A DNA stretch of 20,946 nt from a virus (lineage: Duplodnaviria; Heunggongvirae; Uroviricota; Caudoviricetes), in IMG/VR virus record IMGVR_UViG_3300028886_000047. One strand, written 5' to 3'. The position numbers and the translations under genes are program-made. Position 1 is the first letter of the stretch. Every line of letters starts with the position of its first letter. This document shows, in pieces, positions 1,468 through 18,594 of this stretch. The notes under the pieces are model-generated. The model was not told the DNA's origin and made no database searches. It was given only the letters and a program-made list of their open reading frames with translations.

Positions 1468-1907
1468 ATTATGCACTTGGTTGGGCTTGTAATTTAAAAG
1501 ATATTTTCGTTCGGTTTCCATATGAAAAATTTCCATCTTTAAAAAAATTGAGGACAAAACGTGAAAGATTAGCTTTAATAAAGAGGGTATTTATAGAAGG
1601 ATTAAGATTAATTCTTACTGATATAATTGAAAACAATGTAACATTTAAAGTACCTTCTATAGGATATATTGGTGGAGAAATTCATATGGAAGCCGTTCGA
1701 GATTAGGACTTTTATGAAGCTCGTAAAAATGGAAAATTCAAAGAAGTTGATTTTATTGAATCACTTTTTACAGGATATTAGATGTATTTATATATTCACG
1801 GAAAAAGAGATAATTTTCTTCATAGGAGAAAATTTCCAATTTATTTTCATAAAGAATTAAGAAATAAATTGATTGAGAATACAAATAAAGGAATGGTTTA
1901 TTGTTAA
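1464..1907 (+). CDS. IHF/HU-like DNA-binding protein of the crAss structural module (147 aa, TAG=Gln)
   Basis: Read through 2 TAG to TAA 1905-1907 (TAATG overlap with next gene). Basic protein with LILTDIIENNVTFKVPSIG; Crassvirales conserve a pair of IHF-like genes at this position. Confidence 0.6.
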
Positions 1908-2473
1908 TGAAATAGACAGATATAAATGATTATGTAAAATAGGTTCATGAAAAATTTCCAGAATTAACTGAATCTGAAGTAAAAAGAATTTTAGTTTATG
2001 GATGGAAAATGATACTTTAGTATATATCAAAAGGTAATGATTTACATATTCAAACTAATAAATTTTTTACTTTTATAGGGCGAATACCCACTAAAGCGTT
2101 AGATGTTTTTAAAATATATAGATATAAATTATCCAAAAGAATAGCTTATATGTTTAAAAGAACTAACTCAGAGTGGGATGGTTATTATTACTTTACAAGA
2201 ACAGAAAATTAGTATATGGATTATCTGAAACAAAGAAGAAAAAAGTATAAAGTATTCAAAAACGTGTTCTTATATAAATTATTAGAAGAATTAAAAATAA
2301 AAGAATCAGATCGTCCATACATATTTAGATTAGCTGAAGATAGAACTAGTTGGATGAATAAGTATTATCCAGAAATTAAGACAGATAAAGCAGAATTAAT
2401 CATATAGAGAGATTCTCTTACACTACAAGATATGATGACTTCTTAGAATAAATTTAAATACATACAACAATAA
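1907..2473 (+). CDS. Second IHF-like protein (188 aa, TAG=Gln)
   Basis: MKQTDINDYVKQVHEKFPELTESEVKRILVYGWKMIL...; 6 in-frame TAG (first at codon 3); ends TAA 2471-2473 overlapping the next ATG. The N-terminal helical pattern and synteny suggest the IHF-like family. Confidence 0.55.
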
Positions 2474-5400
2474 TGGAACAAGCAGTCAATACTTTTTAGA
2501 AAGGACTTCAATTAGACAGTCATCCAATGATGCAAGGGAATGAATCTCTTACTGATTGTCTGAATGGAACTTTTATTACATAGAATGGAAATGAGATAAC
2601 TCTTCAGAATGATATGGGAAATGCTCGCGTTGACCATGCATATCTTCCAGCTGGATATGAGCCAGTTGGAATTAAAGAATATGGCGGAGTAATATATGTA
2701 GCATGTCATAATCCTCTTACAGGTAAAAGTCAAGTAGGAAGTTTTCCATCTCCTGAGAGAATTAAAGGAGCAGAATACAATTTAGGTAATTGCATATGTT
2801 TAAATAATATTATTTCTAATAATAATACTTAGGGTGAGAATAAAAAATTTTTAATAAATGATAGTATTCTGTATCCATTAACTGAGGATAATTCATTACA
2901 TGTTGGAGATAAGTTTGCAATATATTATACTGGAGAAGACTAGGAGTATTTTAAAAATGTATCGAATTATAATAATATACAAGGTAAACTTATAAAAACT
3001 CCAAAAAATAAATTATATACCCTATCAATAGGAATACTTAATTCTTAGAATGAATTTGTTGATATTACAAAATCTTTATTTAGATTTAATAAAAATGGGG
3101 AACAATTACCTAAAACTGGAAACGATAATTTTGATTTTAATAATGGGTATTTTATAATTCCAATTGATGAAAATAATATATCTGGAATATTGGGAAACGA
3201 AAGTAGCACACAAGAATATTTAAAAAATAGGTTAGCATTATCCAATGTTAATACATATTCATATAAGTTAGTAGGGCCACTTTATTTAAAATAGACATTA
3301 AATCATATTAGAGAATTTACCTACAATATTGATGGTTATAAAGAAGAAGGTAATTATACTTTAATATTTACTGCAAATATTACATATAATTGTCCTGATG
3401 GAACTGGTATCTAGAAACATGGAGATTTAACTGATTTTTAGGATGATGGAATACGTAATAATTTAGATATTAATAACTTTTGTATATTGGAAGTAATTAA
3501 TGCAGATGAAAATTCAAATGAAAATTCAGATGAAAATTCAAATGAAATATCTTCTAAACCATCTACAGAAGTAATATCTCATACGTATGATTAGACAGAA
3601 AACTTATATCACTGTATATTGAAGAAAGAATATACTTATACACATAATGATAGTTCGTCTAATATTGGAAACTTTTTCATCGGAGTAATTGCCTCAAACC
3701 ATTTTTATAATAGTCCTGATACTGATGATTCATGTGAATGCAATTTAACAGAGTCAGCTAATGAAGTTATTTTTGATCCTAATTTATCAGAAGAATTTTC
3801 AATAAATCTCGATTTATTAGGAACTGGTAATATATAGTTTAATGGATATAGATATTTTAATAATCCAAATAGAACAACACTTGTATATAATACTAGTTAT
3901 TATAAAAAATAGGATGAAATTAAGGAATTAGTCTTTAAATTTAAAGATATAACTACTGGTTATAAAAATAGGGATGAAATAGTATTAGGCCCTTATACAG
4001 CAGTTAATGGAAAATCTGTAATTGAATTTGATTGGGAAGATTCCCTTGATTCAACTAAAGAATTTATTCCTAGACATGTTTATAGATTAAATATTTATGA
4101 ACAAACTTAGGGTGAATCGGAATTAGAGGAAGTTGTTGAAAATCTACATTTTTTAACTACTCCATTATTTAATTCATGTTATAATCCAAGTAACAGTGAT
4201 TTTATTGAGGATTTTAGAGATATATATTTAGGAAATGAAGACCATCCTAAATATGATGTAATCCTTAAAAAACTTACAATAAATTATGATTATGAATCTA
4301 ATTTTAAAGGAGAACTTAAAAAAGTGGGAGATTATAAAATTAGTGGTTCTCTAATTAAGTCTGGACTTTCTGGGTTTACCATAGATAGTAATAGTAGTAA
4401 TGCTAAAGAAAGTGGTAGTGTTTGGGAAGATGAAGAAGAGGAAGAACCTGGACAAACAAGTTCTGAAGAATTAGTTCAACCTGACAGTATAGTTGAAAAT
4501 TCATATAGGATAACAGGAACATTTACTATTCCCAACTTTGCTCCTTTTAGATTAGCTATTCATGGTACTGGACTAGGAAATACTGTACTAAATATTACAA
4601 TTAAAAATCATAATAACCAATAGACTTATACATATGGTTAGTATAATTTATATAATATAAATGACACTTTACATGTAAATGAAGAAACCGGAGAAACTAA
4701 TGAAGTTACATTTTGGCATACAATGACTCCCGTATTTACATTACCTGCATACATGTTTAATACATTAGGAGACGAAACTGAAATTGATGTAATAATTGAT
4801 TATTATGCAGGATATGTCTTTGATAATTTAAATCTATATTTAAATACACAAAATAATATATTAACATAGTTTACGAGTAATGAGTATTTAAATATAGAAT
4901 CTGTTACCTCTAATGATTCTACTGAATTAGTCAATATAACCTCAAGTTTGAGTAAAGACATTACATTTAATCAAGATTATATTTACATTGGAAATGTAAA
5001 AGGACGATATTAGTTTGTTGGAGATAGTACATTTACAGATGAATATCAAGCACCTAGACTCACATTAGTTAAAAATCAAATAATCGATGTATGGAAATAT
5101 TTAGATTAGAGTAAGTATATTGATTCTACAACAACGCATGATTTTAATAATGTTAATTTCGATAGTGATGGAAATATTGTCTAGAATTGTACATTTGTTC
5201 CAATGCAGGCCGGTTCTCAATTTAGTTTATATAAATCTACAAAATAGACATTAACTTATAATAAAAGTATTATTTATACTTTTGATTGTAGTTATAATTC
5301 AGCTTTCCAGAGTATAAATTCCTCACGAAATAATTATTTTTATTTAGAAAAAGGAGATTTAATAAAAGTCAAATTACAATATAATAATACTTCTATTAAT

Positions 5401-7638
5401 AGTTCTTTTACAGGTAATTTAGGAATACAATTTAATAATAATTCTTCTTATTATTATATTCCTATATAGACTGATACTTGGTTTAGTATTCCAGAAGAAA
5501 TATTATGTAATTGGGTCAATAGTGATAATATTTTAATAGCTACTCTTAATTCATTATCTGGAGTGACAAATATAAATAATGATTATAATTTACAGCTTAT
5601 AGTAGAAGTTGCTAAACACGAATAGACAATTCCTAGAACAAATGCTCCGTTAAGAGCTTCTTCGGCTAGTTCTTCAACTAATCCTGGTTATGATAATCAG
5701 CCAACAAGTTGGCAGAATTTATATTTATATATGAATGGTAATTATTATTTTCTTTAGGGAAGTCAGCCATATGACGGCCAAACTTATAAAATAACGACTT
5801 AGGCACTTTTTACCGAGGAAAGTGATTATAAATTTAATTTCAATAATGAGAATGAGCCATATATTATTTGTGTTGAGGAGCATAGTACTTATGATAGCCA
5901 AATAAATACTCCTATTTCTTTTGACTCTAAACTCGGATATAAAATTCCATTTAATGATTAGATAAAAAGGAAAGGTTATATTAAAGGAGGAGTTCGTTAT
6001 AAACTAGAACGAGAGGGACCAGCTATTTATGTAGCTTACGCTATGCCGTTTGATTACGAAGCATAGACAAGTCTAAAAAAAGATTTTCATTTATTATATA
6101 ATGAATATACATCTCCAAGTACAGATAATACAGAACAATCTACTACTCCTGTATACACAGCTCCAGATGAAATTGAATTAAAATATTCTCAAACTTATCA
6201 ATTAGATTATACATCAGAACCTAGATTAAGAGTTATTAATGTTGAAAATTATCCAGAAGATATACGAGAATTTTTAACGACAGATATTACACTATCTTTA
6301 AATTAGAGTTTCAGTGGATATAAGGATAAGATTATTACAGAGGGAACTGGAGCATCTATTGATGAAAGTGAAATAATTACACAAGGTAAAAACCAATTTA
6401 CCTTAAATCAAATATTTAGAGCTAAGGCAGTATCTCCATCTAATGTGCAAATTAAAAATGGATTTATGAGTATTCATAATTTATTAGATAATTTAAGTAA
6501 CAAAGATATTGCTGATAAAGCTACTTTGGGAATTTATTGTCATGGACGTAGTGGTAGCGATTCAAAAGCTATTAATGGCCTTAGAGATAGGGATGGCAAT
6601 AGTGTAACAAATGGAACTCAATTTGATAGTGATACTTTAGATGGACTTAAAACATTTGAATTGGATAATTTCAAAGAATAGTGGTTTAGTTACTTAAATT
6701 AGAAAAACTTTGCCTTTAGTTATTAGTTCTTTAGGTCTATTACTGGAGGAAATAGTAGTAGAAATATTAATTATAGAAGTAATGTGGCAAATATATCTGG
6801 AAAAGTTGGCTATACATCTGCTTTAAGAGCTGCTCGTGTATGGTGGAGAAATTATGATGATACATGGTCTTTAATAAGGCTTACATTTGATAGATTCAGT
6901 CCTATATCATAGAAAGAAGAACTAGGTATTACAGTTGGATTGAATGGATTTTCAGTTTCAGTAAATGATAACTATCCAGTAGATGCCCATTATCCTTATA
7001 ATTTTAATCAATTCTTAAAGAGTAAATTATTTGCAGAAAACTTTTCATATTGTGCTGTAAATCAATCAAATTGTGCTGCTGAACATATTTATATTCCAGA
7101 TAAAAATAATTTAGCATATTTGGATAGATGTACAGTCAATTATACTATAACACCTAATATAAGAAGCATTGATGAATCTTCTGGTTCTAGGTATAACTAT
7201 AGAGAAAATGAAAATTCAAATTTTATTGTGTCTTTTAAAGAATATTTTCCAAAATCTAAGCAAGAAGAACCCATTAATTTTGAAATTAAATGTATAGAAT
7301 AGTTTTATGATGATTTTTTGAATTTTAATTATAATGAACTAACAAATATTGATTTAACTACTGGAAAAATGACTGATATAGATGGACAGCCATTAATTTC
7401 TTCAAATATTTATACTTATAATAATGGAGAATTAGTATTCAATATAGAAAAAACTAATAGGTTATGTAAATCTGATACTTATAAAATGGGTTCTTATAAT
7501 GCTATATTAGGAAAAAACGTTAGAACTGATATTTTAGATTTAAAATATGACACTATAAGAGACGATAAAGATAGTGATAATGATCATCAAGCAACAGCTT
7601 TGAATTTTTCAGGAGTTAAAATAGCAGGAGTACAATGA
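2473..7638 (+). CDS. Giant tail protein with a muzzle/gp10-like N-terminus and a long variable region (1721 aa, TAG=Gln)
   Basis: I read one frame across 5166 nt with no TAA/TGA but about 31 TAG; it joins ORFs 2614, 3619, 4324, 6445, 6940 and 7318 of the track (all same frame). N-terminus MEQAVNTFQKGLQLD...LNGTFITQNGNEITLQNDMGNARV...GYEPVGIKEYGGVIY...SQVGSFPSPER is a conserved crAss tail signature. Ends TGA overlapping ATG 7635. Confidence 0.8.
3505..3546 (+). repeat. In-frame 12-bp tandem repeat RATGAAAATTCA x3.5 (DENS-NENS-DENS-NE)
   Basis: gatgaaaattca aatgaaaattca gatgaaaattca aatgaa read directly. Confidence 0.9.
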
Positions 7639-10600
7639 GTAATATACAAGTATTTTTAAGTACATTAGAAACTAAAGGAAATCTAGCATATGAATATAAT
7701 CCTTTTCATAATTATCAAACAAATGTTGATTTATATAAATATGAAACGGATATAGGAACAGTAATTGCTTCAGACAAGGCCAAAGTTTTAAAAAATGGCC
7801 TTGTCTTACATCAGTTATATGGAAATACCTGGGAGGATAAGTATGGAAATAAATATAATTCAGATATTCAAACAGTAGATAAAGGAGAAAAATATGCTAG
7901 CGCAGGTTCCTTAATAGATTTAGATACAGAATAGCTAAATTTCGATTTAGAACATCCTGTAGATATAGAAGTTTAGCCTTCTTATGATGGGTCTGTTAAT
8001 CTTATTTTGAATGATGATAAAAATATTCCGAGATTAATTAATTCTAGATTCTCAGTAAGAGAAAAAGGCACTTATGAAATAGTAGATAGAATTGGAGAAA
8101 ATGATACTAATATATATAGTTCAGATACTTTTGAAAAAGATACTTCTTTATACTTTTAGTATAAATCAAATCCTACTGTTCAATTTACCAATTTTATATC
8201 AGGAATATTACCTGTAGGTTCGTACTATTTTTGTTTTGCCTATTGTGATGCAGATGATAATGAATCTGATTATATAGCTGAATCAGGATTAATTCCAGTA
8301 TTTTTAGGCAATGATGGCGACCCAAATTCTATGGTAGGAGGAATTAAGAATCAAAATTCTCATAAAGGCATTAAACTAAAACTCCAAAATCTTGATGATG
8401 CTTATACATATCTTAAAATTTACTATGTAAGGTATTTTGCAGATTATCAATAGAATAGAGTTTACGAAGCCAAGAAAATATATAAAAAATATCCTATAAA
8501 TTCTGGCACTGTTTATTTATAGATTACTGGAAACGAGCAAGCTGAAGATATTGATGCAAATATTTTAAATATTTCAAGGTTTAATCCACATCATCTTCTT
8601 ACTTAGGCATAGTGTAAAAATATGTTATTCTTCGGTAATATTGTAAAAAATGCTGATAATTATAGAGAATTATAGGATTGTGCTTTAAGAATAATTCCAA
8701 AAGTTATAGAGAAAACATTCTAGCCTACTGGAACTGATTATGTATATCCTGGATATTATACATCTATTAATATGTATAATAATGTAGGATATTTTAATAA
8801 AGAATATTATAGGTTTGGGGTAGTATTTATTTATGAGAATGGAACATTATCTAATGTGTATAATACATTAGGATATGATATAGTAAACAGTGAGAAAAAT
8901 AATATTACATACAATAACGAATGTATGTATGAAGAAAGTGATAATTAGGCTATATTAGTTAGAAAGTATATAAAATCTGATGATGAAGGTTGGATAAAAA
9001 ACTTTTCTGATTTCTTTAATCTAGGCGAAGATATTCCATCAAATACAATAAATTCGAAAGGAGTAGTAAAATTAAATAAAAAATATACATCAAATAAAAT
9101 ATTAGGAATTTAGTTTAATATCCCAAACGAAGTAATTAAGTTTTTAAAAGAAACACTTCATATTAGAGGACTTTTCTTTGTTAGACAAAAGTGTATTCCA
9201 AGTACTATAGCTTAGTGTTATTTGCTTCCTATGGATGAAGTTTTAAAAGCTCCAGTATTAAAGGTAGGAGATTTATATCAAACGGAATCTTTTATAACCA
9301 GAAAAAAGACTTTAACCAATGATTATAATCAAAGACTATATGCTTATAATGGCGAAACCTCTACTGAGAATAAAATTAGTAAACATGCATATGCCGCTAT
9401 TTGTCCAGATTTTCTTTTAAATTAGCCTTATTATAATCAAATCTTTAATGGAAGTTCTTTTAAATTAAATCAAATTACTGATTCAAATTCAAGTGATTTT
9501 CATCGTTCTGATAGGTTTTATATTGATGGAAATACCTTATCAGAAGATGCATCTAATACGATAAATCCTACAGTATCTATTTGTTCTGTAACAGAAGATG
9601 TTCCAACAGTAGCTATAAAAGATTCTATTTATAAATTATAGATAGGTGAAGCAGAAGAAGCTTTTAGATTTGGGTTTGTTGAATATGACAACAGTTCTAT
9701 GGATAATGAAAATAATGGAACTGATAAAAAAGAGAATTATTACTTTAATATTATTCGAGGGAAATATTCACCATACTTAGCTATATATAGCGATGTTGAA
9801 TTAACAGTTAATTCCCTTTATGATATAATGTATGACCAACAGAACCCAATACAAGAATTTAAAAACAGAATGGATTCTTTCGAACCTTTTTATGCTATTA
9901 GTAATAGATACAATTTTGAATAGTTAGAAGGAGAAGGAGATTCTGATAAATCAATAATATGTTTTAGAGGAGATTGTTATTTAAACACATTTACATATCG
10001 TTTAAATAGAAATTTTAATGACCCAACACTTCCTAGTAATGATGAAATAATAGATCCGAATACTTGGAAAGATCACTATAAATTGGACGATCCTACAGAA
10101 TGGACTAAAATATCTCGTTCAGATGTTAATGCTATTCAAATGGGAAGTTGGATTACATTCCAAGTAAGAAGTGCTATGAATTATGCTCTCCGTTCTGAAG
10201 ATGCTTCTAATGTTGCAGAAGCTGCATTAATGGGATAGCCTCGTAGTTTTTATCCAAAAAATAAATTATTATTTAGAGGAAATAACAAAATTCCTGATTC
10301 TTATGTATTTAATGATGCGTATAGAGCTACTTTGGGATTTAAATGTTACTTTACTTTAAATGATATAAATTACATTAAAGATACTTTCTCAAATAGAATA
10401 CAATATTCTGCTATATCTGTACAAGATTCTTATAAAAATAATTATAGATATTCATTATCTACATATTTTAGAGATTATTCTCAAGAATATGGCTCTATTA
10501 CAAAACTTGTTGGATTTGAGGGATATTTACTTGTTATTTTCGAACATGGTATTGGAATTGCTGTAATTAATGAGAGAATATTGGCAGGTCAAGGAGATGG

Positions 10601-15180: not shown

Positions 15181-15289
15181 AGAATTTAATAAATTAAAAA
15201 ATTATAATGAATTTATTGAATTTAAAAATAAATATAAAGATTATATATTTATAGATTATTTTATAATGGAACCTGATTTTGATATATGA
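15140..15289 (+). CDS. Small hypothetical protein (49 aa, MEQSIIQLDRKLNEEFNKLKNYNEFIEFKNKYKDYIFIDYFIMEPDFDI)
   Basis: The frame stays open across an otherwise stop-rich, very AT-rich gap; it overlaps the upstream gene by 41 nt and its TGA overlaps ATG 15286 (ATGA). Below the ORF track cutoff. Confidence 0.5.
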   Translation: MEQSIIQLDRKLNEEFNKLKNYNEFIEFKNKYKDYIFIDYFIMEPDFDI

Positions 15290-16458
15290 AACGTTCAAGA
15301 TTAAAAAATATAATTAATAAATCAAAAACTATTTCTAATAAACAAGAAGTTGGAAATCCGTTTGATAAATTTAAAAAGTCTCTTCCTATAGAAGTTGATG
15401 ATAATTATAGGTTAGAAGCTGCTTGGAAAGCTTATGGTTCTCCTAAGGATTATAAAGAAGCTTTGTGGCAAGGAATGATTCAACCTATAGATGAAAATAA
15501 TGTTAAACTTCCTTCTATTGGATATAATGAAGAGACAGATGAATATGAATATCTTAATAAAGGCAGAGAGAATGAAACTGTAAATAAAGATATTCGAGTA
15601 TGGGATAATGATGTAATTCCTTTTGTTAAAGAATTAAAACAAGGTGGATTTATTCGCATTTTTGACGAAGAAAAAGATTGTTGGAAATATAGTAAAAATA
15701 AACCACAAGAAACCCAAACTGAATAGGGAGAAGTAATTGAATAGTTTAAAAATGGAGGTTCTAGTAAAAAGCCTTACCAAGAATGGTTAAGAACTGTTCC
15801 ACAAGATAGACTATCTAATAATTATGATTTAGAAACTGCTTATCAATATCTTCCGATAGAAGAATTGGAAAAATGGAGAACTGCAACTCCTGAACAATTA
15901 AATGATGAATCTCATCATTTGAGAAGTGTAGCTCCTTATGGTGATGGAGATTATATTTTTCTTAAAAAAGGTAGAGAATGGGTTAACCCAGAAGTTCAAG
16001 GAGAATTAGATTAGTATCATTTAGGTAAAACTGGATTGTAGTTTTCGCATGATTTAATATTTGATGAAGATTAGAATCGATATTTCTATAAAAAGAAAAA
16101 AGGATTTAATCCACAAGCCTTTAAACAAGGTGGACAGATGAATGTTATACCAGAAGGCGCGTTACACGCTAGAAAAAATAACATGGAAGGTGCTGGAGAA
16201 GATTTTACTGCTAAAGGCATTCCAGTTATGACAGCTGATGGCAAAGAATAGGTCGCTGAGATTGAAAAAAATGAAATTGTGTTTAATAAAGAAGTAACAG
16301 ATTTTATTGAATAGAATTATAAGAAGTTTAATTCTGATATTAGTAATACCGAAAAGGATGAATTAGCTATAAAAGTAGGTAAACGTCTTGTAAAAGAAAT
16401 ACTTGATAATACTGATGATAGAACTGGATTAATAGAAGAGGTTTCAGAAAAAATGTAA
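15286..16458 (+). CDS. Cargo-like virion protein with two tandem paralogous domains and a conserved C-terminal module (390 aa, TAG=Gln)
   Basis: Read through 7 TAG to TAA 16456-16458. C-terminal FKQGGQMNVIPEGALHARKNNME...KGIPV...QVAEIEKNEIVF resembles a conserved crAss virion-protein module. Confidence 0.65.
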
Positions 16459-16504
16459 AATTTTTCTAAATATAGTTATTAAGTATAGTATAAGTATAGT
16501 TAGT

Positions 16505-16585
16505 CAAAAAATTTGGCTCAATGTTCTAAAAATTTGGCGCACCATATACAAAAAATTTGGCTCAACTTTCATAAATTTTGGCTCA
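16505..16585 (+). repeat. Four direct repeats AAAWTTTGGCKCA, iteron/operator-like
   Basis: TTTGGC cores start at 16512, 16533, 16556 and 16577 (spacing 21, 23, 21 bp) in a 170-bp non-coding gap directly upstream of a wHTH gene. Confidence 0.85.
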
Positions 16586-16592
16586 AAAATGA

Positions 16593-16615
16593 TTTTGAAA
16601 ATTTATTTTTCAAAA
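16593..16615. promoter_or_regulatory. Inverted repeat TTTTGAAAA-N5-TTTTCAAAA, possible operator
   Basis: Perfect 9-bp arms ending 13 nt before ATG 16629; function is inferred and the arms are AT-rich. Confidence 0.35.
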
Positions 16616-16628
16616 ATATTTTAGGTAT

Positions 16629-17342
16629 ATGAAACAACATATAGAATTGCCTAGCAAAGAGAGTTCCGAATTAACTCCAAAAGATAAGTTAATTTATTTA
16701 GCTTTAAAGAGTTATGAAAATGGAAAAACACATGATTGTTTTCCTTCGATGGCTAAAATTTCGGAAAGATGCGGGGCTTCTGAGCCTACAATTAAAAAAT
16801 CCTTAGATAAATTGGAAAGAGAGGGATATATAACTATTGAAAAAGTAAACCCAAGAAAAAAAAGATATAAATTTAGCGAATATAAAAAATTTGAATGTTT
16901 TTCGTATGAATTTTTATACAACAAGGATTTAACTTTTACAGAAAAATCATATTTAGCAGCATCACAACAGTATATGTTAGAAAAAGAAAGTGGAAAAGGT
17001 AAAATTGATTATTCTAGTTACGAATTATCAAACAAAATTAATATGTCTCCAACAACAATACGACGTTGTGATAAGTCTTTAGTAGAAAAAGAATATATGA
17101 CAATAATTAGAAAAACTAAAAATGGACTAGAAACTTCAGAAATAGATTCTAGATATTATGATTTTGCTAAATATAATGAAGCAGTATGTGATGCACTTAT
17201 TTCACATGAAGATAGAATTACTTCATTAGAAGAAAGATTTGCAATCCAAGAAAGACGTGAAAAAGAAAAAGATGCTTATATAGCTAAATTAGAAAGCCAA
17301 TTAAGAGAAAAACAAATTGAAAAAACAAAAATTACATTATGA
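16629..17342 (+). CDS. Tandem winged-HTH protein with C-terminal coiled coil; replication-initiator (RepL/HTH_36-like) or regulator (237 aa, no TAG)
   Basis: LTPKDKLIYLAL...CFPSMAKISERCGASEPTIKKSLDKLEREGYI is an HTH_36-like pattern; a second unit LTFTEKSYL...SSYELSNKINMSPTTIRRCDKSLVEKEYM follows; then a heptad-like charged tail. Intact in both codes, ends TGA overlapping ATG 17339. Confidence 0.7.
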   Translation: MKQHIELPSKESSELTPKDKLIYLALKSYENGKTHDCFPSMAKISERCGASEPTIKKSLDKLEREGYITIEKVNPRKKRYKFSEYKKFECFSYEFLYNKDLTFTEKSYLAASQQYMLEKESGKGKIDYSSYELSNKINMSPTTIRRCDKSLVEKEYMTIIRKTKNGLETSEIDSRYYDFAKYNEAVCDALISHEDRITSLEERFAIQERREKEKDAYIAKLESQLREKQIEKTKITL

Positions 17343-17950
17343 TAGAAGCAAAGAAAACTAAAAATATTGGTTCTATTAAAATTGGAAATTAGGAATATGA
17401 TATTATTCTTGCTAAATCTGAAGAACAGAAAAGGCGTGGATTATAGAATTTTACTAATCTTCCAAAAGATGAAGGAATTTTATTTTATATAAATGAAGAA
17501 GAACCTGTTGAAACATAGTTCCACATGCATAACGTGTCTTTTCCAATCGATATGATATTTATGGATGATGAATTTAAGGTACTTGATGTTAAGCGAGGTA
17601 ATCCAGAAGATGATAACATACGCGGAATTGCATCTTATGTACTTGAAGTAAATGTTGATAGTGGAATTAAAAAGGGAGACGAAGCAGAAATAAATGATGA
17701 AGATTCTCATAAATATGTTATGGCAATATTAGGGAGCGATAATAAACCATAGGCCTGGCTAGAGTCAGGAGAGAGAATAATTTCACGTCGTGAAACTGTT
17801 GTTTTAATTAAGAAAGCTTTAAAAGCTAATGCTTCGAAGGAAGATAAAGATTATAAAGCACTTGGGAAATATATATTTAAAGTGTTAAAAGGACAAGATG
17901 AACGTAAACCAGAATATGTATAGGCTCCAGAATCTAAATAGAAGAATTAA
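17339..17950 (+). CDS. DUF192 (COG1430) protein with C-terminal extension (203 aa, TAG=Gln)
   Basis: AKSEEQKRRGLQNFTNLPKDEGILF...FHMHNVSFPIDMIFMD...YVLEVN...GIKKGD matches the DUF192 pattern; 6 TAG; ends TAA 17948-17950. Confidence 0.85.
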
Positions 17951-17952
17951 TT

Positions 17953-18594
17953 ATGCCAGATTATAGATATGACCCATTATAGAATAATTTCGTAACTTAC
18001 GAAGCTGTTGAAACTCCGAAAGTGGAAATAGATATGCCCTTAATGGATAAGCCCTTAGATATTAGTGATTGGAGTATTGGAGTTTCACAAACTGGTACTC
18101 CAATAGCATAGAGAAATTTACCAACTGCTACTGATAATAACACTTAGATGGTACAGCCTTCGGTTGATGTTACTTATGAATCTAATCCAGGAGTAACTGG
18201 CAGTAAAAAATAGGCTTATGAGTTCTTTATAGGTAAAGGATTAAAACCACACCAAGCTGCTGGAATAGTAGGAAATTTAATGCATGAATCTGGATTAAAA
18301 ACATCTATTAAAGGAGATGGTGGAAAAGCATTTGGTATTGCTCAATGGCATCCAGATAGACAAAAAGGATTAGAAGCATTAGCTAAATCACTAGGAACTT
18401 CTAAAACAGATCTTAATACTCAACTTGAATATGTTTGGTAGGAATTAAATAGTACGGAAAAGAAAGCATTAAACGCATTACTTAATAGTAAATCTGTTGA
18501 ACAAGCTACTAGTAATTTCTGTTAGTATTACGAAAGACCTGGAGTACTTGCTTTAGAATCTAGAATAAAATATGCTAAATCAACATTATCATGA
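17953..18594 (+). CDS. Phage tail lysozyme (Phage_lysozyme2-like) muramidase (213 aa, TAG=Gln)
   Basis: AAGIVGNLMHESGL...GDGGKAFGIAQW...R...TQLEYVWQEL...A...F...YERPG is the family signature; 6 TAG; TGA overlaps ATG 18591. Confidence 0.88.

Follow-up and report, generated by a model that had tools for sequence, protein, structure and literature searches.

An insertion of about 880 bp between two late genes of a rumen crAss-like phage is, as far as comparison with related phages can tell, a real, conserved, selected and mobile cis-trans DNA-recognition module, and we propose that this cassette (16459-17338) is most likely a mobile iteron-type replication origin that travels with the gene for its own initiator, the tandem winged-helix protein P0001. 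New here are the insertion with its empty sites, the boundaries of the cassette, the covariation between protein domains and repeat half-sites, the readability of the gene in the standard code, the duplex stability of the region, and the link of the AT-rich repeats to RepL and helicase genes.

The window, by which we mean the whole stretch of 20,946 nucleotides that was analysed, corresponds to positions 9832-30777 of a 134-kb virus record with an estimated completeness of about 75%, and the sequencing runs that contain the window sequence originate from bovine gut samples. The window belongs to a TAG-recoded crAss-like phage. Translation with the standard code yields short ORFs; with TAG read as a sense codon, long genes in a common orientation appear, the largest product having 1721 aa. 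The crAss muzzle protein is encoded directly upstream of the homologous locus in a close relative. In the record, a plus-strand block (0-61 kb) holds the late genes and is heavily TAG-recoded, with a density of 2-3 TAG per 100 codons in the late genes next to the cassette, whereas the minus-strand block is mostly TAG-free and has genes for PolA, ribonucleotide reductase, an ATP-dependent ligase, an SF2 helicase and a DnaB-like helicase (99211-100308 of the record). A previous sequence-only reading of this DNA had placed the P0001 gene among virion-associated late genes, and this was borne out; those genes are readable only with TAG as a sense codon. In RNA libraries, contigs identical to the window span 16343-16580 and 16678-17489, for which DNA carry-over is possible. 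Table 1 lists the features of the locus.

Table 1. Features of the cassette and of its flanking late genes (positions in the window).
Feature	Coordinates	Strand	Remarks
Upstream late gene, left flank of the insertion	15286..16458	+	390 aa, 7 in-frame TAG codons
Whole mobile cassette, ~880 bp	16459..17338	+	homology to relatives that carry the cassette elsewhere
Tri-repeat, three TAAGTATAGT-type units followed by TAG (16501-16503)	16467..16503	+	candidate DNA-unwinding/loading element
Four lineage-specific direct repeats (iterons), ~21 bp	16504..16589	+	starts at 16504, 16525, 16548 and 16569
Promoter-proximal AT-rich region with inverted repeat	16586..16628	+	possible operator, weakly supported
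P0001 gene, tandem winged-helix protein	16629..17342	+	237 aa, HTH_36, no TAG codon
Downstream late gene (DUF192), right flank of the insertion	17339..17950	+	6 in-frame TAG codons
Tail-lysozyme-domain gene, after the DUF192 gene	17953-18594		

The cis region of the cassette has three parts. The tri-repeat is composed of units at 16467-16476 (one mismatch, degenerate here), 16480-16489 and 16491-16500, and a search of the 134-kb record found exact copies of the 10-mer TAAGTATAGT in the cassette only. The tri-repeat is also the locally least stable duplex (98-99th percentile among the 40-bp windows of the window), unlike the iterons, whose duplex stability is above average. Each iteron has a 5' box (approximately positions 1-9), a 3' box (approximately positions 10-18) and a variable spacer. 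The 12-mer AAWTTTGGCKCA has four exact matches, at 16509, 16530, 16553 and 16574 (spacing 21/23/21); with up to one mismatch allowed, the same four sites are the only ones in the window, against 0.66 expected by chance, and the iteron cluster is unique in the 134-kb record. Both the TATAGT repeats and the four direct repeats with this spacing had been noticed in the sequence-only reading and are indeed present. That reading, however, had treated the TATAGT tract as AT-rich DNA and had overlooked that it is an element that does not vary across the family.

Directly 5' of the ATG there is an inverted repeat (16586-16601/16607-16622, 88% complementary), which had also been noticed before and is confirmed here, though it carries less weight because it is AT-rich and of low complexity. 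At about 16604-16611 the sequence comes close to the Bacteroidota -7 box; relatives have a full TAnnTTTG box at this place, and in the cassettes of the family a box of the Bacteroidota type is often found 20-30 nt 5' of the ATG. The position of the -7 box near the ATG indicates that the gene has a proximal promoter of its own and that the tri-repeat is not that promoter. No DnaA box was found within 16459-17342 with one mismatch allowed, Rfam returned no family match, and no terminator-like site was found in the cassette or between the flanking late genes. We also considered the tri-repeat as a general early promoter and ruled this out, since it occurs once per genome record and the gene has its own proximal promoter-like box. 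In the phi14:2 study, no motif shared by the early transcripts was found upstream of them.

P0001 is the only HTH_36 gene product in the genome record, and its gene takes its TGA stop from the ATGA with which the DUF192 gene begins. The match to HTH_36 (PF13730) covers residues 14-68 with an E-value of 1.8e-19 (69.7 bits against a gathering cut-off of 25). The AlphaFold model (AF2, pLDDT 79) predicts a first winged helix at about residues 17-82 (WH1), a second winged helix at about residues 103-178 (WH2), and a single long C-terminal helix of 54 residues (180-233), in agreement with the two wHTH units and the coiled coil that had been recognised from the letters of the sequence. WH1 matches DnaD_N (36.6 bits, cut-off 27) and, in PHROG, replication-initiation, O-like and DnaD-like families. 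A DnaD-type C-terminal domain (DnaD/DnaB_2) was not found, the remainder of the protein being the second winged helix and the long helix.

The top full-length Foldseek matches of the model were RepE54 and Rep-iteron-DUE ssDNA complexes (E about 3e-5, TM about 0.4, rmsd 6-8 A). Domain by domain, MarR-, LexA- and CodY-type regulators were matched at Z about 9, and both winged helices aligned with the N-terminal domains of RepA_N proteins at Z 8.4-9.2 (4pql, 4pt7, 4pta, 5kbj). As modelled, the single domains appear to resemble MarR-/LexA-type regulators as closely as RepA_N initiators. Among sequence profiles, Rep_3 gave no match to P0001 at E up to 0.1, the RepE sequence gave no match with the P0001-family profile at E up to 1, and RepL (PF05732) matched neither P0001 nor any other protein of the genome record. 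The MarR profile scored 23.7 bits on P0001, below its cut-off of 24.6, and the P0001-family sequence profile gave weak matches to AdcR and MarR. The comparison of the protein with Rep_3, RepL and HTH_36 that the earlier reading had suggested thus gave a positive answer for the HTH_36 profile and for the full-length fold of RepE, and a negative one for the Rep_3 and RepL profiles.

The limits of the cassette became apparent from loci that carry it in other contexts, in which nucleotide homology starts at 16457-16467 and ends at 17334-17342. In most relatives, close ones included, the site is empty, and a single base separates the end of the upstream gene's homolog from the DUF192 start codon. 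The 880-bp unit of the window lies exactly inside this one-base spacer of the two late genes. These alignments indicate that the cassette is a discrete mobile insertion between two late genes. The element does lie inside the virion operon, as had been read from the window, but as a mobile insertion and not as a native part of the operon.

Proteins 81-94% identical to P0001 occupy different genomic places. The L117 cassette is in the same slot as that of the window, the L002 and L116 cassettes are one gene upstream of it, the L118 and L119 cassettes are at a convergent junction after giant late genes, and the L120 and L001 cassettes are at a divergent junction, both kinds being junctions between the two gene blocks. 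One P0001 protein clade spans at least four different genomic slots, and one genome whose site is empty carries a cassette of its own, placed at the divergent junction (L140 against L040/L098). In L116, the slot of the window holds a second, different cassette preceded by leftover iterons of a third type, which stem from a cassette that has been displaced. One X6 contig, in which 16227 is joined to 17338 (side 42, 85% threshold), gives no more than a hint of a strain that lacks the cassette.

P0001 has at least 160 homologs, many of them on contigs of 145-175 kb. When viral contigs were scanned for pairs of adjacent 10-mer units, 63 loci were found, and at 28 of these a P0001-family gene was present 100-490 bp downstream on the same strand. 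In a second sample, family genes were picked by protein alone, independently of the motif, and essentially all loci with upstream sequence kept the layout, down to 31% protein identity. The shared order is the tri-repeat, three to five direct repeats with a period of 20-22 bp (measured in 40 cassettes), the proximal promoter, and the gene on the same strand. Among about 45 distinct cassettes in related phages, the tri-repeat is clear in 41 and degenerate in 4, and the TAG follows the last unit in 35 of the 41. Each core position of the tri-repeat is 91-100% conserved in 35 cassettes, and this conservation of the 10-mer persists below 40% protein identity. Many of the junction-located cassettes are preceded by long phased A/T tracts. 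The large contigs of the family sample carry, near-universally, one cassette each; in some genomes two or three different cassettes are found in tandem.

When the P0001 family was compared with deposited phages by tblastn, only a partial match in a Parageobacillus phage was obtained; the family is absent from deposited plasmids, and in bacterial collections it occurs only on MAG contigs that resemble phage genomes. Deposited phages and plasmids, searched by BLAST with the tri-repeat, gave chance-level matches or different repeats only, among them a tandem repeat of 11 bp on a Vibrio plasmid and, on pFK2-7, loose AAGTATA repeats that precede a rep gene. In the literature we found no paper on the motif in any phage, nor on iterons in Crassvirales.

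The tri-repeat and the iterons diverge at very different rates. Among 40 cassettes, the last tri-repeat unit with its TAG is 92-100% identical in every bin of protein identity. Below 50% protein identity, iteron similarity stays at the level of shuffled sequences (10 +/- 2.5); it rises steeply above 70%, and reaches 50 at 80-90% and 82 above 90% protein identity. Because such co-divergence alone could be drift, the repeats were phased on the TAG and split into the 5' box and the 3' box, and domains and half-sites were compared by a permutation test with 35 distinct cassettes (564 pairs below 60% overall identity). The recognition helix of WH1 correlated with the 5' box (r=0.33, p=0.0005) and the helix of WH2 correlated with the 3' box (r=0.15, p=0.0035), where the p-values are indicative, since the helix positions were chosen post hoc and the lineages are not independent. 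The cross terms (WH1 with the 3' box, WH2 with the 5' box) were weak.

Individual lineages point in the same direction. Cassettes with mixed helix types (L059, L082, L006 and L066) have correspondingly mixed half-sites. Within the clade of the window, neither the 5' box nor the WH1 helix varies, and the 3' box has switched in concert across the four repeats of each sub-lineage; seven of the eight residues that separate the groups of this clade are in WH2, including the start of the recognition helix and the wing. Taken together, the comparisons suggest that P0001 recognises its own repeats, with WH1 reading the 5' box and WH2 reading the 3' box. The sequence-only reading had anticipated that orthologs would have upstream repeats that co-vary with the protein, and they clearly do. 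Such covariation points to DNA recognition, not to what follows from it.

The P0001 gene differs from the late genes around it in its coding class. Internal stop codons of any kind are absent from 56 of 63 family genes, and recoded stops were found in only 1 of about 30 family genes that lie within TAG- or TGA-recoded surroundings. The replisome genes of the phage are also TAG-free, and the near-absence of recoded stops thus puts the P0001 gene in the code class of the phage replication genes. The dN/dS of the gene (0.04-0.27) indicates purifying selection. The sequence-only reading had correctly described a gene within the late region and had missed that it is, unlike its neighbours, free of recoded stops.

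The tri-repeat is also found without a P0001-type gene. In L058 a RepL-family gene lies behind TAAGTATAGT repeats in the same junction context, and in L055 a DnaB-like helicase gene lies behind 10-mer repeats. These two associations indicate that the tri-repeat is separable from P0001-type initiators and accompanies replication genes. In non-crAss phages that use Shine-Dalgarno sequences, 10-mer repeats together with direct repeats of their own are found at divergent junctions beside terminase operons (the unrelated phages L026, L036 and L039), and a winged-helix protein of another family is encoded near the motif. The DnaD-like winged-helix proteins of L026 and L036 have no significant profile relation to the P0001 family. 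The terminase-adjacent context is equally compatible with an origin, an early control region or a packaging site.

For the origin reading, which we favour, the mechanism may be as follows. P0001 would bind the four ~21-bp repeats, one protomer to each, in the manner of RepE-type monomers, and the bound P0001 would open the adjacent unstable TAAGTATAGT tri-repeat, at which replication of the phage DNA would then start. Since the tri-repeat is nearly invariant across the family, it is probably read by a conserved component, either a conserved part of the initiator or conserved components of the replisome such as the phage DnaB-like helicase. With a proximal promoter of its own and no recoded stops in the gene, P0001 could be made before or without the TAG-to-Gln switch. 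The protein and its array occur once per genome, move together and do not depend on context, which fits a cis-trans module for replication, partition or packaging better than a regulator with a regulon. Indeed, neither the tri-repeat nor the iteron cluster recurs elsewhere in the 134-kb record, which argues against a dispersed regulon.

The cis origin with its initiator had been put forward in the sequence-only reading. Covariation, the RepE-like fold and the layout speak for it, whereas a GC-skew signal, DnaA boxes and relatives on plasmids did not emerge. GC and AT skew of the 134-kb record have no inflection at the locus and flip only with gene orientation, and skew is for that reason uninformative for an origin. 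A further origin or cassette could sit in the part of the phage genome that the incomplete record does not cover. Tandem cassettes of differing specificity are unusual for origins. Going further, and much more tentatively, we suggest a "hopping origin", in which the module might move as a unit between intergenic slots of crAss-like phages and diversify its iterons by paired changes of winged helix and half-site, and in which the TAAGTATAGT tri-repeat might be a general origin-opening or helicase-loading element for HTH_36- and RepL-type initiators, even in unrelated phage groups.

The same features can be read in other ways. P0001 could be an autoregulated transcription factor with an operator array (immunity-like or a roadblock) that controls its own promoter and perhaps the read-through that would pass from the upstream late genes into the DUF192 and lysozyme genes. 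The likeness of its winged helices to MarR, LexA, CodY and similar regulators and the weak AdcR/MarR profile matches are in favour of this, as are the position of the repeats directly upstream of the gene's own promoter, the overlap of the inverted repeat with that promoter, and the lack of a terminator between the flanking late genes, owing to which binding could affect read-through. Across the cassettes of the family there is a modest enrichment of inverted iteron half-sites close to the promoter (13/35 against 22%, 10/35 against 11%), which might be operators for a Rep dimer, but they were not detected in the window itself. With the repeats nowhere else in the genome record, the gene itself would be the only target, and this weakens the pure operator array that the sequence-only reading had offered as its alternative; the many unrelated contexts of the cassette leave no constant neighbouring target either. 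Direct repeats read by monomer-like tandem domains, with halves that track the two domains, would be unusual for MarR-type dimers, whose operators are palindromic, and a regulator would leave the invariant tri-repeat and its link to RepL and helicase genes unexplained. We consider a regulator unlikely. More improbable still is that the cassette is a selfish mobile element or a device of competition or incompatibility between phages, and not the main origin of its resident phage. Such a module would pass from one co-infecting phage to another, and its DNA-binding pair would either interfere with rivals or be a passenger. The precise insertion in a one-base intergenic spacer with empty sites in relatives, the spread of one protein clade over several slots, the remnants in L116, the tandem paralogous cassettes, and the rapid, concerted diversification of repeat specificity would all suit such an element. 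No nuclease, recombinase or transposase domain is detectable in P0001 with Pfam or PHROG, however, and the strong purifying selection together with the near-universal single cassette per large contig suggests a function that the phage needs. This explanation also overlaps with the origin reading, because a mobile origin would be selfish too.

Two further explanations are given little credence here. Phased direct repeats upstream of a small winged-helix gene would also be expected if P0001 bound a centromere-like or tethering site (as in TubR/tubC, ParR/parC or EBNA1-like systems) and so segregated or anchored the phage genome in a plasmid-like carrier state, and the prototypic crAssphage has been proposed to persist in a plasmid-like manner (PMC10983915). 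The P0001-family profile does match TubR, but at noise level (E 0.017), the neighbours of the cassette change from context to context and never include a motor gene of the ParA, ParM or TubZ type, and the low duplex stability of the tri-repeat would be left without a role; we regard this explanation as very unlikely. The least probable of all is a packaging recognition site with a small-terminase-like protein, in which the DNA would be cut at the tri-repeat and the protein would bind the variable repeats. In lambda, the packaging arrangement is cosN, the R sites and Nu1, and the order of a conserved site, three to four binding repeats, and a gene for a winged-helix and coiled-coil protein resembles it; the 10-mer repeats also adjoin terminase operons in L026, L036 and L039. 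Against this, P0001 has no Pfam or PHROG match to terminase small-subunit families, in crAss-like genomes the cassette changes its slot, and none of its slots is associated with the large terminase or other terminase genes, its gene has no recoded stops where the neighbouring late genes have them, and L026 has a separate small terminase gene.

Crassvirales are among the most abundant viruses of the animal gut, and to our knowledge no replication origin has been mapped experimentally in them; the origins of the prototypic crAssphage are based on Ori-Finder predictions, GC skew and long-read coverage. The cassette supplies a testable candidate, composed of a 170-bp cis region and a 237-aa protein, for which some 45 natural variants already suggest which domain reads which half of the repeat. 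If it is an origin, it would provide parts for shuttle vectors and for the engineering of phages that are largely uncultured, it would explain why a gene readable in the standard code lies inside a recoded late operon, and it would mean that a phage origin can be moved and exchanged as a module whose specificity evolves rapidly. Should it turn out to be a regulator or a device of competition, the tri-repeat, invariant and common to RepL and helicase genes, would still be a conserved DNA signal worth study.

Among known systems, the iteron theta plasmids (mini-F ori2/RepE, pPS10/RepA, R6K/pi and RK2 oriV/TrfA) have the same order of elements as the cassette, namely short repeats in an easily melted AT-rich tract, four to five direct repeats about two helical turns apart, a promoter, and the rep gene. 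Iteron origins are recognised by an initiator gene that adjoins at least three direct repeats (17-22 bp each, at a spacing of about two helical turns), and by a neighbouring AT-rich stretch that melts easily and contains short repeats (DUE); the cassette has such direct repeats and, in its three phased units, such an element. RepE and other Rep_3-type initiators have two winged helices in common with P0001, and RepE54 is its best full-length fold match. TrfA and RepE bind the short DUE repeats beside the iterons sequence-specifically and on one strand (PMC4081077), and binding of Rep to DUE repeats has been documented (PMC10602881). Unlike the plasmid systems, P0001 lacks a Rep_3 signature and has an extra long C-terminal helix, and the cassette lacks DnaA boxes. 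The AT-rich repeat of the cassette, moreover, hardly varies even where the initiators have diverged strongly, and it is common to other types of initiator. The cassette is also located in a virulent-type phage genome of 130-180 kb with a helicase and polymerase of its own, and hops as a whole between intergenic slots.

The covariation of origin repeats with the DNA-binding domain of the initiator is a classical pattern in lambdoid phages, and WH1 of P0001 matches several PHROG families annotated as replication initiation O-like. In lambda, however, the origin lies within the O gene and has palindromic iterons bound by a dimer, whereas the cassette has direct repeats upstream of the gene that are apparently read by two domains, and no loader like lambda P is evident with it. 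The staphylococcal RepA_N proteins (pSK41/pTZ2162) align with the winged helices of P0001 at scores no better than those of MarR/LexA regulators, and RepA_N origins are inside the rep gene, unlike the cassette. For the prototypic crAssphage, a preprint places predicted origins next to repL (Schmidtke et al., PMC10983915). There, an initiator-like gene is the first of a gene block and the predicted origin is directly upstream, as in the P0001 cassette, although P0001 is not RepL and iterons are not mentioned in the text of the preprint (PMC10983915). Finally, the cassette resembles phage morons and free-standing homing genes in being an independent transcription unit placed precisely between two genes of a late operon, with empty sites in relatives. 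It differs from them in having neither a nuclease domain nor a terminator, and in that its cargo is a matched cis-trans DNA-binding pair.

In the family of P0001, the HTH_36 protein of the cassette, conservation is highest at residues 88-116, a block that coincides with neither recognition helix. It comprises an aromatic-rich linker and the first helix of the second winged helix (WH2), with F88, E89, F91, S92, Y93, F95, L96, K106 and Y108 invariant. The block is a candidate for contacting the invariant tri-repeat or a conserved partner.

The 10-mer units are also found beside other gene families. Three comparison contigs (L026, L036 and L074) represent phages unrelated to that of the window, with 34% GC and Shine-Dalgarno usage, in which the same 10-mer units as in the cassettes are followed by TAG and then by 3-5 direct repeats of ~23 bp. 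Downstream of the repeats lie a conserved gene of 81-84 aa and an excisionase-like gene. This repeat site is a divergent junction that adjoins genes for HNH, terminase and portal proteins, and a DnaD-like winged-helix protein is encoded on the opposite side. At L058 and L078, two TAAGTATAGT units precede a 151-aa RepL-family protein in the same junction context as that of the HTH_36 cassettes, with no obvious iteron array at this locus. In a group of short phage contigs (L016, L023, L039, L045-L047, L051, L052 and L069), a 12-bp direct repeat that contains GC occurs twice after the TAAGTATAGT-type repeats, at a divergent junction adjoining a terminase-like gene.

Junction-located cassettes share an upstream context, in which a G-run and then TAAAAAT occur ~100-150 bp 5' of the tri-repeat, together with phased A/T tracts of considerable length; a short hairpin (GGCCG...CGGCC) lies immediately 5' of the first 10-mer unit. 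All of these elements are absent from the cassette copy inserted in the window.

Features in the window, its parent virus record (G000) and the comparison loci
Feature	Locus	Position	Strand	Remark
10-mer units, TAG, direct repeats	L026	9775-9935		unrelated phage
same	L036	3700-3830	minus	unrelated phage
same	L074			unrelated phage
RepL-family gene behind two units	L058 (and L078)	1570-2280		PF05732, 29 bits
Shared upstream context	L004	5700-5790
same	L058	1480-1575
same	L083, L099, L105, L088, L096, L115	upstream regions
Remnant iterons	L116	2190-2549
DUF723-domain gene	L002	8067-9410		in or beside slot
same	L119	4282-5223		in or beside slot
Stop/start overlap (ATGA)	window	17339-17342
Four TAG-free ORFs	G000	2228-9795	plus	head of late block, directly before window
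Tandem 11-bp unit, 8 copies	L079	4000-4095		Vibrio tasmaniensis plasmid p1

DUF723-domain genes occupy or adjoin the intergenic slots used by the cassette, among them, in L002, the one that precedes DUF192; these slots thus appear to be general landing sites for mobile genes. In L116, remnant iterons of another cassette type lie 5' of the locus's second, different cassette, and resemble a scar left when one cassette replaced another.

At the 3' end of the window's cassette, the standard-code gene ends in a stop codon that shares bases with the start codon of DUF192, a gene containing TAG codons, and therefore transcripts from the cassette promoter would enter genes needing TAG suppression. This overlap is a product of the cassette insertion itself. 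The four sizeable TAG-free ORFs in G000 (358, 362, 289 and 391 aa) contrast with the 18 genes downstream of them.

Outside phages, the 11-bp unit of the Vibrio plasmid, with a polygalactosaminidase gene downstream of the array, is identical to the variant 10-mer unit of cassettes L110 and L115, an identity that may be coincidence.
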